NCBI GenBank assembly: GCA_965261035.1
Contig: OZ253439.1
Location: 1,337,070-1,401,069, forward strand
Source of the DNA: Polaribacter sp.
GTDB taxonomy: Bacteria > Bacteroidota > Bacteroidia > Flavobacteriales > Flavobacteriaceae
Direction of reading: 5' to 3'
DNA: 64,000 nucleotides
Shown here: one piece after another, positions 37,245-41,986 of the stretch
Numbering within the stretch: position 1 is the stretch's first letter
Layout: every line of letters starts with the position of its first letter
Position numbers and translations under genes: made by a program
Notes under the pieces: generated by a model
Databases searched by the model: none
What the model was told of the DNA's origin: nothing
The model's input: the letters and a program-made list of their open reading frames with translations, nothing else

Positions 37245-37312
37245 ATTTTAATTCTAAACGCAAAAAAACTTCATAAGAATTTATGAAGTTTTTTTGCGTT
37301 TAGAATTAAAAT
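37245..37312. terminator. Perfect 32-bp-arm inverted repeat downstream of the OmpA-fusion gene
   Basis: Arms 37245..37276 and 37281..37312, loop gaat. Confidence 0.75.
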
Positions 37313-37324
37313 ATCTGTTACTAC

Positions 37325-38944
37325 TTATTTATCGTCAGAAACTTTTATTTCAACTCTTCTATTTTTAGTTCTACCAGCATTAGTTGTGTTAGGGGCAACT
37401 GGCTTAGCTGAACCATAACCTTTAGAGGTTAATCTACTAGTTTTAATTCCTTTAGACACCAAATATCCTTTTACAGAACTAGCTCTTTCATTAGATAGCC
37501 TTAAATTTATAGCATCTCCACCCGTATTGTCTGTATGACCTTCTATGTCAAAGTTGAATTTAGAAAATTTCTTTATAACATTAGAAATGTCATCTAACTT
37601 CTCGGTAACTCCTAATTTAAAAGAGCTTTTACCTATATTAAATAAAATAGATTTAGAATAAGAGTCTATCTTTATAGTAGCTGCTTTAATATCTGGACAT
37701 CCACCATTAGAAGCAGGTCCTTTTTCGTCTATACATTTGTCATCTTTGTCTAACACTCCGTCTCCGTCAGAATCTGGCCAAGGGCAACCTCCGTTTTCAG
37801 CTGGACCGGCTACATTAGGACATTTATCATCTTTATTTAAAGCTAAAACACCATCTTTGTCATAATCTGGGCAACCTCTGGTAGCTTTGCTTCCTTTGTC
37901 GTAAGGGCAAGCATCGTCTTTATCTGCTACTCCATCTGCGTCTGCGTCTGGACAACCATTTAAAGATGCCACACCTACTACATTAGGACAATCATCTTCA
38001 GAATCTTGAACACCATCTCCATCAGTATCTGGGCAACCTTTAAAAGCGGCTAAACCTGCAACTTCTGGACAAGCATCATCTTTATTATAAACACCGTCTC
38101 CGTCAGAATCTTTTTTACCCAAATTAAATCCAACACTAAATGAAGGTTGAACAAAAAATGAAGTTGTATAAGTATCTGAATCTAAACTAGGTAAACCCGG
38201 TCCTGGTATTTTATCACTAAAAGCATAATTAAATGATGCAGGTTTTATTCTAAAGCCTATAAAAACATCTTCAGAAAGATAATAATCTACACCTGCAACT
38301 GCCTGAATTCCAAAGGATGTTATTTCTACATGTCTTGCTCCTAAATCTGTAATTACATTATTACTATCAACTGTCGGGTCGTATAAAGACCTTCTTGCAT
38401 AGTTAAAAGGTAAAGCAATCCCTAAATATGGGAACATTCTTTTGCTTCCTGTGTTAAAAGTCCATTGACCACCCAATGTAAGGTTTATATCAATTCTTTC
38501 GTCAGCAACTACGGACTTGTATCCCGGTATTATTGTTTTTCCACCAGTAGTTACTGCTGGTATAGATAAATGTTCTGGAGTATTTCTTAAAATTGTTCCA
38601 CCAGATAGTGTTAAAGCAATTTTATCAGAAACATAATATCTACCTTCAGCACCAACCATATTTATAATACTGTTGTCGTTTGAGTTAATATCATTCGCAA
38701 AAGGAGCAGAACCATTAACTGGAGTACCGGTAGCACCGAACGAAGCGGGTGCAGCCAAACCAGTATTACTATAAGCTCCTCTTCCAAAAATTATTGCAGC
38801 CGTATAATCTCCCTTTTTTGGAGCATACGTTTTCTTTGAAGAACTACTGCTTTTTGCTTTTTGTTTGGAATCTTTATCTTGTCCGTACATTCCTGTTCCC
38901 AGTGAAATGGATAAAATAAAAATAAAAATTATATATTTTTTCAT
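37325..38944 (-). CDS. BT1926-like outer-membrane beta-barrel fused to five thrombospondin type-3 repeats and an OmpA C-terminal domain
   Basis: APKKGDYT, MVGAEG, IPGYKSVVAD, AGVDY, PGLPSLDSD, QPSFSVGF; five DxDxDG..D.CP repeats; IEGHTD, NLRLSNERA, NRRVE. Confidence 0.8.
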   Translation of the reverse strand: MKKYIIFIFILSISLGTGMYGQDKDSKQKAKSSSSSKKTYAPKKGDYTAAIIFGRGAYSNTGLAAPASFGATGTPVNGSAPFANDINSNDNSIINMVGAEGRYYVSDKIALTLSGGTILRNTPEHLSIPAVTTGGKTIIPGYKSVVADERIDINLTLGGQWTFNTGSKRMFPYLGIALPFNYARRSLYDPTVDSNNVITDLGARHVEITSFGIQAVAGVDYYLSEDVFIGFRIKPASFNYAFSDKIPGPGLPSLDSDTYTTSFFVQPSFSVGFNLGKKDSDGDGVYNKDDACPEVAGLAAFKGCPDTDGDGVQDSEDDCPNVVGVASLNGCPDADADGVADKDDACPYDKGSKATRGCPDYDKDGVLALNKDDKCPNVAGPAENGGCPWPDSDGDGVLDKDDKCIDEKGPASNGGCPDIKAATIKIDSYSKSILFNIGKSSFKLGVTEKLDDISNVIKKFSKFNFDIEGHTDNTGGDAINLRLSNERASSVKGYLVSKGIKTSRLTSKGYGSAKPVAPNTTNAGRTKNRRVEIKVSDDK

Positions 38945-38978
38945 ATTGTTTAGTTCTTTAAGAGTTAAATTTTGTTTT

Positions 38979-39016
38979 AAAAGGGACTGAAGAGAACTTT
39001 ATTTATCTTCAGCCCC
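38979..39016 (-). terminator. Stem-loop with U tail between the large lipoprotein gene and the barrel gene
   Basis: ggggctgaaga...tcttcagtccc-tttt on the minus strand. Confidence 0.65.
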
Positions 39017-39049
39017 ATTAATAATCTTTAATATTTCCTAAAGAAAGTA

Positions 39050-41917
39050 TTATGCTTTTGTTGCTGCATCTAAAGCAGCAACAGCTAAGGCTTTATACTT
39101 ATCTGCAAGACCAATAAGCTTTATTATTTCAGCATCCATAACTTTTAACTCTTGTTTAAGTACCCATATAAGCTCTGTCATTGCAACTATATTAATCTTA
39201 CCGTTAAGAACAGCTTTTTTTCCATTTACTAGATTGCTAGTTGCTGTTACAAGATTTTGCTCAGCAGCATCTACATCTGCTTGTAAATTTCTGGCAGGAA
39301 TAGTTATTAACCTAGATGCGTTAAGATATTCAGTCTTAATAATTCTCAAAGATATTCTTTTCGCTATTAAGAGGCTCTTCTTATACTCAAGGGCTTCAAT
39401 CTCAGCCTCAATTACGTTAATACTAGATACTAACTCACTAACCCCTTCTACATTTGAAGCCGATTCTATCTCTTTCTCTAAAGCTGTAAGTTTAGCAGTA
39501 TTACCAGCTATTTTAGCAGCAAGTGTAGCGATGTCAATACCTGATAATTTAATATCAAGTTCTATCTTTTCTTTTGTTCGGAAATTAGCTTTAGCAGCTT
39601 TAGCAGCATTTACAGCAGAATTACTTACAGCATTTTTTTTAGTTGTTATCATTGCTTTAGATGTCTTTAAAATACTATCTTTATCAACTGTATCTGATGT
39701 TTTAATCCCAATTACTTTCAGTGCATTGATAAAAGCAGTTTCTTTAGCTTTTAGAGTAACTCCTTTATTGTCAACAAGTAATCCGTCAAATTTATTAACT
39801 TTAGCTCTAAGTTTTTCCTCAGTAGCACTACGATCAGCTAATGACGCTTTTGCTTTGTTTAATTCAGTAATAGCTGCATCTAATTCTACAACAGCTACAT
39901 TAAATCTAGTAACATTCAACTCATCAGGAGTAGGGTCTCTATCATCAGCTTCAACATTATAGAGTTTACCTATACTACCAAGATTCGTTAAAGAAGTAGC
40001 AGCCTCAATGGATCCAAAATCAGCTACTATATCACCAAGTGTAAACTTGACAGCAAGAACTGTTGGGTTTATCGTTGCAGGAGTCTTAATAGGGAAGTCA
40101 GGACTTGCTGCGGTTTTGTCAAAAAAGAATTGCTCTGTTTCAAATGTTACTTTCTTCTTTCTTACACCATCAACAAGAGGGAAAGTTACATCTTTAATTT
40201 TTCTATATGTAACTTTTACAGCGTCAGCGCCAGTGCCTTCCATAGTGGCGTCAGTAATATTACCCGTCACACCATCAGGACCTGCAAAAACAGAAGGACC
40301 TGCAGGCTCAGCATCATAGATCTTTTTTAACGTGTCATGCTTTTTTCGGGCATCTGCTTCAGTCTTTCTTATACCTTCTATATTAATTCTAGCTGCTATA
40401 TGAGTTTTTAGTGCGTTAGTAGCATCCTCTAAACTATCTAACAATCCGCCAACATCCTCTTTTAAAGCATTATACGCCTTTCTTTTAGCTTCAGCAGTAT
40501 CATGATTTCCTTTTTTGGTGGCAACAGCAGCTTTTTCTTTGGTAATTTTAGCATCTAATTTACCTAACTCTGCATCATAGTCTGCTAAAGTTGTACTATC
40601 AGTCTTTACAGACTTTTTTTTGCTATTGTATAAAGCTGAGTCTGTCTTAATAAGACCAGCCAATCTATCATACTTTGTACGTAAAGCATCAGTTTCAGTT
40701 AATTTATTTAACTTTTCTACTTCAATAGATTTCGTGTTTTCCTTTGACCCTATATTTATTTCCTCTAAATGCACCTTTATTCCAACTTGTACTATACTGT
40801 CGTCGTATTCTTTAACACGTGCATCAAATTCTGCTTTTTGAGTAACAACTTCGTCAGTTTCATGAGCAACTTTAGCAGCTTTAGCAACTTGTACTCCAAC
40901 TTCTGCAGCTGCTTTTAAACCTTTTAGCAGAACTAAGGAAGCTTCAGCTACAGCTGAATCTATTTTACCCTCAGCTAACATTCTTGATTGCTCAGCTAAC
41001 ATTTCTGCTCTTACTTTTCTCGTAACCAATTTGGAAGCAGCCACTTTTCTAACAGCTATGTACTGATCAACTAGACCCTCTGCTACTGCAAAACCAGCTG
41101 CTCTAAGATCATCTGCGTGTAGCTGTTGAGCTTCTAGCAATTCAAATTCTGCTCTTGCTACATTAATAGCCGTTTGAGCGAGTACATCTGCAGCATTTGC
41201 CGCCCGATTTGCAGCATTTGCTTTCTCAAGTTCAGCCTTTGCCTTCTCAAGGTCAGCCTCCGCTCTTACTTTTGCTGCTGCAGCTTCTGCGGCTGTCATA
41301 TTACTGGCAGTTTCAGAAACTATCCTTGCAATCTCCGCTTCTGCTTTATTTACTGCAACTTCTGCGGCTGCTATATTACTGGCAGTTTCAGCAAGTATCC
41401 TTGCAACTTCCGCTCTTATTTTTTCTGCTGCAGCTATTGCGGCTGCTGCATCACTGCTAGTTTTAGAAATTATCCCTGCAACCTCTGCTCTTACTTTTTC
41501 TGCTGCAGCTATTGCGGCTGCTGCATTACTGGCAGTTTCAGCAAGTATCCTTGCAACCTCCGCTCTTACTTTTGCTGCTGCAACCTCTGCGGCTGTAGCA
41601 TTACTAGAAGTTTCAGAAGCTATCCTTGCAGCATGTGCTTTCTGAACTTCGGCATCTGCCGCTCTAAGATCGGCTTCCGCCTTTTTAAGAATGGCTTCTG
41701 CCCCTTTAAGAGCGGCTTCCGCCGCTTTAAGAGTAGCCTCTGCTTGATTTACCGTAACTTGACTAGCAAGAAGGTCAGCTTGACCTTGGTAAATCTTTTT
41801 AATTTCTGGTGAAACTTCGCTATCTATACAAGATACAAAGCTACCACCAAAAATGATAGCTACTAATAGTGCTACCAAAAATCTGTTCATTTTGTTCATT
41901 TTGTTCATTTTGTTCAT
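39050..41917 (-). CDS. 955-aa Ala-rich coiled-coil surface lipoprotein (BT1927 S-layer-like)
   Basis: Lipobox FVSC then IDSEVSP; long heptad helices around a central non-helical domain; directly upstream of a BT1926-like barrel gene. Confidence 0.75.
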   Translation of the reverse strand: MNKMNKMNKMNRFLVALLVAIIFGGSFVSCIDSEVSPEIKKIYQGQADLLASQVTVNQAEATLKAAEAALKGAEAILKKAEADLRAADAEVQKAHAARIASETSSNATAAEVAAAKVRAEVARILAETASNAAAAIAAAEKVRAEVAGIISKTSSDAAAAIAAAEKIRAEVARILAETASNIAAAEVAVNKAEAEIARIVSETASNMTAAEAAAAKVRAEADLEKAKAELEKANAANRAANAADVLAQTAINVARAEFELLEAQQLHADDLRAAGFAVAEGLVDQYIAVRKVAASKLVTRKVRAEMLAEQSRMLAEGKIDSAVAEASLVLLKGLKAAAEVGVQVAKAAKVAHETDEVVTQKAEFDARVKEYDDSIVQVGIKVHLEEINIGSKENTKSIEVEKLNKLTETDALRTKYDRLAGLIKTDSALYNSKKKSVKTDSTTLADYDAELGKLDAKITKEKAAVATKKGNHDTAEAKRKAYNALKEDVGGLLDSLEDATNALKTHIAARINIEGIRKTEADARKKHDTLKKIYDAEPAGPSVFAGPDGVTGNITDATMEGTGADAVKVTYRKIKDVTFPLVDGVRKKKVTFETEQFFFDKTAASPDFPIKTPATINPTVLAVKFTLGDIVADFGSIEAATSLTNLGSIGKLYNVEADDRDPTPDELNVTRFNVAVVELDAAITELNKAKASLADRSATEEKLRAKVNKFDGLLVDNKGVTLKAKETAFINALKVIGIKTSDTVDKDSILKTSKAMITTKKNAVSNSAVNAAKAAKANFRTKEKIELDIKLSGIDIATLAAKIAGNTAKLTALEKEIESASNVEGVSELVSSINVIEAEIEALEYKKSLLIAKRISLRIIKTEYLNASRLITIPARNLQADVDAAEQNLVTATSNLVNGKKAVLNGKINIVAMTELIWVLKQELKVMDAEIIKLIGLADKYKALAVAALDAATKA
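41255..41629 (-). repeat. Five tandem 75-bp (25-aa) repeats
   Basis: Units start at 41629, 41554, 41479, 41404, 41329; consensus ARILAETASNAAAAxAAAEKVRAEV. Confidence 0.9.
41882..41917 (-). repeat. 9-bp tandem repeat at the start codon, (ATGAACAAA)3 ATGAACAGA
   Basis: Encodes MNKMNKMNKMNR. Confidence 0.92.
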
Positions 41918-41978
41918 TTTGTTACTATTTAATTAATGTTTAATATTCTTTTAGTTATAATCCTATAAACTATCGGGA

Positions 41979-41986
41979 CAAAACTA
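41979..41986 (-). promoter_or_regulatory. -7 element TAGTTTTG for the lipoprotein/barrel locus
   Basis: Consensus match about 60 nt upstream of the ATG. Confidence 0.6.

Follow-up and report, generated by a model that had tools for sequence, protein, structure and literature searches.

A BT1926-family barrel fused to the OmpA-type tail of flavobacteria and paired with a hypervariable lipoprotein in Polaribacter sp.

We analysed a stretch of 64,000 nucleotides (nt) from Polaribacter sp. (Flavobacteriaceae; GenBank assembly GCA_965261035.1, contig OZ253439.1, positions 1,337,070 to 1,401,069 of the forward strand), which we call the window and whose own numbering is used throughout. Two adjacent genes on its minus strand (37325..41917), encoding a 955-amino-acid (aa) lipoprotein (P0002) and a 539-aa outer-membrane protein (P0001), are best explained as a surface-coat cassette of the BT1927-BT1926 kind. 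P0001 joins a barrel of the BT1926 family to the periplasmic module of the ordinary flavobacterial OmpA. This architecture is rare, the ordinary OmpA itself is missing from the genome, and the gene of the lipoprotein partner is hypervariable among co-occurring strains.

The surface layer (S-layer) locus BT1927-BT1926 has been studied in Bacteroides thetaiotaomicron (Taketani 2015, PMC4611039; Porter 2020, bioRxiv 10.1101/521070; Silale 2025, PMC12578637). Bt1927 is a 100-kDa S-layer protein and surface lipoprotein, and Bt1926 is a putative eight-strand anchor or secretion partner (PMC12578637, PMC4611039, bioRxiv 10.1101/521070). Published members of the BT1926 superfamily are 195-288 aa long, BT1926 itself having 288 aa, and published models of the superfamily show radial tetramers to hexamers with loop 1 at the centre and a central hydrophobic chamber (PMC12228718).

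Results

Architecture of the fused protein

The open reading frame at 37325..38944 is open on the minus strand only, the plus-strand frame being full of stops. A sequence-only reading of the window had proposed that it encodes an N-terminal barrel, five DxDxDG/CP repeats at 37694..38111 and a canonical OmpA C-domain. Pfam, a regular-expression scan and AlphaFold bear this out, with the repeats at 37694..38110 (-). In P0001, a signal peptide is followed by matches to PF16961 (OmpA_like; aa 88-274, 59.3 bits against a Pfam cut-off of 26.6), TSP_3 (36.3 bits, cut-off 25) and PF00691 (OmpA; aa 434-529, 70.3 bits), for which a chance origin is ruled out.

The PF16961 or 'BT1926 family' barrel occupies aa 45-275 (38120..38812, -). 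The AlphaFold model of P0001 (predicted local distance difference test, pLDDT, 78.7) places eight long strands within aa 47-274 (47-54, 96-104, 109-122, 147-162, 170-188, 203-222, 227-246 and 254-274), as in a closed eight-strand barrel with a long first extracellular loop. That predicted loop spans 40 residues (aa 55-95; 38660..38782, -) and has low confidence in the monomer. The barrel passes into the tail through a linker of three residues (...SVGFNL-GKK-DSDGDG).

The tail opens with five TSP3 repeats of the calcium-binding type (aa 279-417). A scan with the expression D-x-D-x-D-G...D-x-C found exactly five of them, at aa 279, 306, 333, 360 and 391, and the ten cysteines of the region make five pairs, one in each repeat. 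The OmpA_C domain, of the peptidoglycan-binding type (aa 434-529; 37358..37645, -), keeps the motif GHTD...LSNERA, whose Asp and Arg we take to be the peptidoglycan-binding residues of OmpA-like domains, and Foldseek matched it to the C-domains of OmpA, Pal and OprF. At the other end of the protein, Gln22 directly follows the predicted signal-peptide cleavage site (MYG|QD) and is kept in at least 90% of 88 family members. Secreted Bacteroidota proteins have a habit of starting with pyroglutamate, which Gln22 fits.

Family placement of the barrel

When 1.84 billion representative proteins were scanned by HMMER with only the barrel as query, 120 matched. Short fragments aside, almost all of these are barrel-only, and 88 are 230-320 aa long; the exceptions are a 513-aa representative of the P0001-type fusion and three distantly related proteins (395-416 aa), and just one 50%-identity cluster among the 120 shares that fusion. 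The nearest relatives of the barrel are barrel-only, 43-62% identical to it, and carry the NCBI name 'BT1926 family', in full 'BT1926 family outer membrane beta-barrel protein' for those of Lutibacter and Tenacibaculum. In the barrel tree P0001 falls into a clade with barrel-only proteins of Lutibacter, Tenacibaculum and a further Flavobacteriaceae genome, G123 (support 98/94). No NCBIfam model matches the P0001 barrel, so the family name comes through these close relatives. A profile of the barrel relatives retrieved many Lutibacter barrel-only proteins (55-62% identity), and it scored Phocaeicola and Bacteroides 'BT1926 family' proteins at 277-281 bits, equal to the window's own protein. For sequence comparisons a Phocaeicola 'BT1926 family' locus served as a stand-in for BT1926/BT1927.

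The barrel groups with this family rather than with ordinary OmpA barrels: the general flavobacterial OmpA barrel has no PF16961 match, and BLASTP found no similarity between the P0001 barrel and general OmpA barrels (E at least 0.38). PF16961 of any kind occurs in three of 301 Flavobacteriaceae genera, and the other genome from the genus of the window has none. The sequence-only reading had described the BT1926 family as barrel-only. That is true of the clade of the P0001 barrel and of the published members, but PF16961 overall includes a Bacteroidales-type group that combines the barrel with OmpA_C.

Origin of the tail and loss of the ordinary OmpA

Residues 276-534 of P0001 match PDB 5wtl_A, the periplasmic portion of Capnocytophaga gingivalis OmpA, with E = 5e-88 and 56% identity, which places the tail in the periplasm. 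The 264-aa tail was matched (E <= 1e-40) in 287 of 301 Flavobacteriaceae genomes, including 254 of the 261 high-quality ones, nearly always as a single copy in a frame of 450-490 aa; the statement in the sequence-only reading that such a tail typifies the general flavobacterial OmpA was thus sound. It is 65-67% identical to that of the general OmpA of the same-genus genome (G179) and close relatives, and the five repeats correspond one-to-one. P0001 thus shares with the general OmpA (5WTL/5WTP) five TSP3 repeats with intra-repeat cysteine pairs and an OmpA_C domain, but it differs in its unrelated N-terminal barrel and in its neighbour, since the general OmpA has no large lipoprotein as gene partner.

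The genome of the window is a single 2.76-Mb contig, 98.7% complete. It contains three PF00691 genes, encoding P0001, a 281-aa coiled-coil lipoprotein and a 239-aa MotB-like protein that PADLOC assigns to ZorB of a type II Zorya system. Searches of the genome with the barrels of five different general OmpAs gave no match or remnant (best E = 0.44), and aa 1-183 of the same-genus OmpA likewise found nothing there. On this sequence evidence the genome has lost its ordinary OmpA, and P0001 would be its only barrel-type link from outer membrane to wall, a point that goes beyond the sequence-only reading. A metagenome-assembled genome (MAG) of Urechidicola croceus that has the fusion likewise has no second copy of the tail, and all three barrel-only genomes searched keep the general OmpA. 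The Zorya anti-phage system is complete and lies outside the window (C1:136149-138975), with ZorA (419 aa, E = 1e-107), ZorB (E = 5e-80) and the HNH nuclease ZorE (281 aa, E = 2e-64).

Rarity and origin of the fusion

The domain fusion that the sequence-only reading suspected is real and rare. An architecture search for PF16961+TSP_3+OmpA found about ten clusters at 90% identity out of 5.8 billion, and three species genomes. In the papers that we searched on flavobacterial S-layers, OmpA and lipoproteins and on BT1926/BT1927 we found no description of it. In the remaining ten fused proteins the repeats number four and the tail evolves fast. In the tail tree the window's tail lies among general OmpAs (94/87) and the other ten lie on a separate long branch; an approximately unbiased test did not reject a single clade of fused tails (p = 0.53), and the barrel tree gives no resolution. 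Both groups share the junction GFN[LF]-GK-basic-D.DGDG and an odd 16-residue 'DYD' repeat, for which reason we tentatively prefer a single fusion event and a later loss of a repeat. Gene order around the locus is scrambled relative to the same-genus genome.

A second combination of this sort occurs in the Bacteroidales-type proteins P0204, P0213, P0216 and P0264 (395-416 aa), which like P0001 carry a PF16961 barrel and a C-terminal OmpA_C domain. They differ from it in having no TSP3 repeats and in their barrel clade, which is separate in the barrel tree with 100/99 support. Their tail derives from another OmpA_C lineage, which makes its gain independent, and a wall-binding tail on a lipoprotein-partner barrel has therefore arisen at least twice. 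P0264, which belongs to the same 90% cluster as P0204, is encoded 56 nt downstream of a 710-aa coiled-coil lipoprotein of the export-signal type; on the Bacteroidales-type contig that shows this arrangement (L088, 2812-6251) the barrel protein has 416 aa, and the lipoprotein has an acidic, export-signal-like start and an acidic C-terminal tail. Wall-tailed partner barrels of this second type may be common in Bacteroidales.

Pairing with a large lipoprotein

In the window the P0002 gene (39050..41917, -) ends 105 nt upstream of the P0001 gene on the same strand, and this unit is flanked by housekeeping genes, with thrS, rplT and glnS upstream and bshB1 downstream. The same pairing recurs in every barrel locus examined, in each of which a lipoprotein of 613-1042 aa with no Pfam match ends about 25-105 nt upstream of the barrel; the architecture is neither common nor unlinked to large lipoproteins. 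The genomes that carry the fusion all keep the pairing: a sea-ice Flavobacteriaceae MAG has a 916-aa lipoprotein beside its fused barrel, and the Urechidicola croceus MAG has a lipoprotein in three frames beside its own (L001, 2887-5906). Among barrel-only loci, the lipoprotein and barrel have 700 and 269 aa in Tenacibaculum, 1042 and 290 aa in Lutibacter citreus, 859 and 260 aa in G123, 613 and 256 aa in another Flavobacteriaceae genome (G043), and 850 and 314 aa in Phocaeicola coprophilus, where a DUF4369 gene follows. Such a gene lies 3' of the barrel in both Bacteroidales loci examined (L082, 8055-8630; L084, 8028-8558) and in no flavobacterial cassette seen; it is probably the equivalent of BT1925. 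The partner lipoprotein of Tenacibaculum CP013671 is a single 700-aa gene (L042, 3852-5916), and in a second Tenacibaculum assembly (L041, 3814-5916) it is split into two called genes (255 and 446 aa) with a 44-nt overlap, beside an identical barrel. Split frames of this kind may reflect on/off switching by frameshift, pseudogene formation or faulty assembly.

P0002 has no match in Pfam, NCBIfam or PDB. Its sequence and its homologues make it a lipoprotein of the BT1927 type, with a signal peptide, a lipobox cysteine, Cys30 (FVSC|IDSEV), and the start of an acidic segment resembling an export signal (C-I-D-S-E), together at 41828..41917 (-). In seven other loci the lipoprotein upstream of the barrel is a homologue that shares three motifs with P0002. 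These are SC[IV][DK].E..P.V..IY..QA.LL at the N-terminus, a central block F[DN]A[DN]P.G ... Y.NVE.DD, and the C-terminal end Y.ALM.AAL. Acidic residues at positions +3 to +5 after the lipid-modified cysteine are conserved across all the homologues. The export signal of Bacteroidota lipoproteins has been described as C-X-K-(D/E)2, SDDFE or SDDDD (PMC5080379), and the Tenacibaculum start, C-V-K-E-E, matches the optimal form C-X-K-(D/E)2.

Aligned by hhalign with the Phocaeicola partner, the profile of the flavobacterial lipoproteins gave 95.5% probability (E = 1.4e-8) over the first 76 aa, the rest being unaligned. This N-terminal limit fits a published remark that good conservation among BT1927 homologues is confined to the first ~48 aa (PMC4611039). 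A profile search with the lipoprotein family itself retrieved 14 proteins, none from Bacteroides, and was swamped by low-complexity words.

At the 5' end of the lipoprotein gene, 41884-41923 (-), a perfect 9-nt tandem repeat, ATGAACAAA, is present in 4.4 copies and encodes MNKMNKMNKMN, with four in-frame ATGs; homologues begin with MKKMKKMK or MKKMK. In one low-depth metagenome contig a joint at this repeat that 'goes back 37' hints at variation in copy number. Being in frame, the repeat would alter start choice or the length of the signal-peptide N-region rather than silence the gene.

Hypervariable centre of the lipoprotein gene

Two contigs that represent two strains from one metagenome (L086 and L087) have the gene order of the window and were compared with it by blastn. 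Their identity to the window is 98.3-99.9% over the block that starts at thrS and takes in the first ~380 nt of the lipoprotein gene; it is 95-97% from the last ~900 nt of that gene onwards. Between these blocks, at about 39957-41535 (39957..41535, -), the strains are unalignable or ~70-80% identical in patches. The three alleles encode 955, 890 and 964 aa; P0002 and P0272, for example, are 98% identical over aa 7-128, do not align in the middle and share 48% identity over the last 300 aa. Among the same co-occurring strains the fused protein differs at three or four of 539 residues (99.3% identity). In a deep metagenome the window's central allele had a depth of 780-1020 against ~2650 on the flanks, a drop that implies several alleles co-existing in one population.

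Five copies of a 75-nt tandem repeat (41257..41630, -; Tandem Repeats Finder score 445, 80% matches), each encoding an Ala-rich helical unit of 25 aa, sit at the edge of the strain-variable region and may promote allelic rearrangement. The GC content rises in the lipoprotein gene; a foreign origin was rejected as the cause, as the rise comes from Ala codons. Read together, the variation of the lipoprotein and its acidic start point to surface exposure under selection from outside.

Expression signals

A candidate Bacteroidota-type -7 box, TAgtTTTG (41979..41986, -), read by eye as a consensus match only, lies ~62 nt 5' of the lipoprotein ATG, within the 364-nt spacer after the glnS terminator hairpin. 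Matches in a sigma-70 promoter scan were not above those in shuffled sequences, and neither were terminator scan hits. The 105-nt spacer between the two genes contains a stem-loop, GGGGCTGAAGA...TCTTCAGTCCC, followed by TTTT (38983..39016, -; read from the sequence), which is weaker than the hairpins after glnS and after the fused gene and is unlisted by a simple terminator scan; it may act as a partial terminator and thereby keep lipoprotein output high relative to that of the barrel. A long, near-perfect inverted repeat with a T run lies just past the P0001 stop (37245..37312, -; self-complementary blastn match 37312-37245) and is likely a bidirectional terminator closing the unit. Upstream of the lipoprotein gene, where the neighbour is glnS, inverted repeats are weak and AT-rich only. 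Given these repeats, and promoter and terminator hits no better than in shuffles, phase variation was rejected for this locus.

Discussion

A probable lipoprotein anchor that also became a wall tether

In our judgement P0001 is, rather probably, an S-layer-type lipoprotein anchor that has also become a tether between outer membrane and peptidoglycan, the anchoring part being drawn by analogy with BT1926. The lipoprotein would be lipid-anchored and flipped to the cell surface, with its fast-evolving middle exposed outwards, where it may form a lattice, and with its conserved N-terminal and perhaps C-terminal helices seated on the barrel. The barrel, possibly a radial oligomer around the long loop 1 as modelled for BT1926, passes precisely at its last strand into the periplasmic module of the housekeeping OmpA of flavobacteria. 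There, ~140 residues of TSP3, presumably calcium-binding and stapled by disulfides, would act as a spacer leading to an OmpA_C domain that grips the wall. Coat, outer membrane and wall would in this way be mechanically coupled through one polypeptide. The sequence-only reading had already proposed that the fusion tethers a surface lattice or fibre to the cell wall through the outer membrane, and our results back this to the extent that sequence allows. Because the genome has no other barrel-type OmpA, P0001 would also have to carry the general load between outer membrane and wall.

Several observations weigh against this proposal. Contact between barrel and lipoprotein is suggested by gene pairing only. 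The 76-aa homology to the Bacteroidales partner covers a signal peptide and a coiled coil, both of which are prone to spurious similarity. The AlphaFold model of P0002 has low confidence (pLDDT 59) and can be read for secondary structure only, with a small beta domain near aa 568-654 between two stretches of long alpha-helices, aa 37-536 and 664-954. The sea-ice MAG (G302) has, besides the fusion, a fragment of a general OmpA cut by the contig end, so that the fusion does not always replace OmpA. Upstream of the lipoprotein gene there is no invertible promoter and no recombinase, unlike in the Bacteroides loci. Evidence of transcription is negligible, consisting of four short contigs from one run of uncertain type.

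Alternative explanations

P0001 could instead be a housekeeping OmpA with a swapped barrel that serves envelope stability only, its fusion having no meaning for coat anchoring. The tail is the near-universal OmpA tail, and in a genome with no other general OmpA, selection on wall tethering would by itself be enough to keep the fusion; the high conservation of the fused protein between strains is also what a housekeeping protein would show. We nevertheless consider this explanation unlikely. The barrel family stands beside a large lipoprotein in every locus examined, in two orders of Bacteroidota, and the pairing persists wherever the fusion is found. The second, independent gain of OmpA_C by a lipoprotein-partnered PF16961 barrel further suggests that the combination is favoured.

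If the lipoprotein were periplasmic, it could form with P0001 a long coiled-coil spacer or tether, a giant strut of the Lpp type. P0002 is ~85% helical in its model, with helices of 64-127 residues, and its partner bears a periplasmic, wall-binding tail. Such a strut is very improbable, as the acidic +3 to +5 residues in all homologues resemble the experimentally defined surface export signal (PMC5080379), and the characterised homologous Bt1927 is a surface protein (PMC12578637, PMC4611039). The replacement of central alleles among otherwise near-identical co-occurring strains fits outside selection by phages or grazers and would be difficult to account for in a strut.

A two-partner secretion role, suggested for BT1926 from gene pairing (Taketani et al., PMC4611039), would make the barrel a dedicated exporter of the lipoprotein that the OmpA tail merely fixes in place, but we give this the least credence of all, as the P0001 model is a small closed eight-strand barrel, published BT1926 models are closed and channel-less (PMC12228718), and Bacteroidota surface lipoproteins are thought to be flipped by machinery associated with the beta-barrel assembly machinery (BAM), with Bt1926 now regarded as a putative anchor (PMC12578637).

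A more far-reaching form of the anchor-and-tether proposal is that an oligomeric BT1926-type barrel has replaced OmpA, carrying a hypervariable coat outside and holding the wall inside through several calcium-dependent TSP3-OmpA_C arms. We put this forward tentatively, as a possibility that we would not yet favour.

Comparison with known systems

As in BT1927-BT1926, a gene for a lipoprotein of ~100 kDa is followed by one for a small eight-strand PF16961 barrel that belongs to the BT1926-named family, the lipoprotein is conserved at its N-terminus and divergent in the remainder, and strains show mosaicism. Unlike the barrel-only BT1926, P0001 adds the TSP3 and OmpA_C tail in the periplasm. The window also differs from the BT1927 locus in lacking its DUF4369 third gene, in addition to the invertible promoter and recombinase. 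The host here is a marine flavobacterium, and the likeness is drawn through members of the family and not from BT1926/BT1927 directly.

SlpA of Deinococcus radiodurans and OmpM of diderm Firmicutes also combine an outer-membrane barrel with a periplasmic spacer and a wall-binding domain, and are tied to the organisation of surface layers (PMC9388160, PMC10628300). As described there they are unrelated in sequence, with large porin-like barrels, coiled-coil spacers and SLH domains, so that the resemblance is one of analogy only (PMC9388160, PMC10628300). Both halves of the system in the window, a BT1927/BT1926-type cassette and OmpA, are known in kind, and it is not a new kind of system.

Conclusion

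How Bacteroidota retain lipoprotein S-layers is still an open question, in which Bt1926 figures only as a 'putative anchor or secretion partner'. A barrel of this family that is welded to a wall-binding tail, in a genome where OmpA has been replaced, fits poorly with the role of a mere exporter and points to an anchor that bears load. The locus offers a tractable, single-copy and non-phase-variable system in a small marine flavobacterial genome, suited to the study of barrel-lipoprotein contact, of calcium dependence and of the trade-off of a conserved anchor against a coat that is swapped among co-existing strains. If the more far-reaching form of the anchor-and-tether proposal is true, P0001 would be an envelope-spanning connector from coat to wall of a type not yet described in Bacteroidota, and the independently acquired tail of the Bacteroidales type would point to a general need for coupling such coats to the wall.

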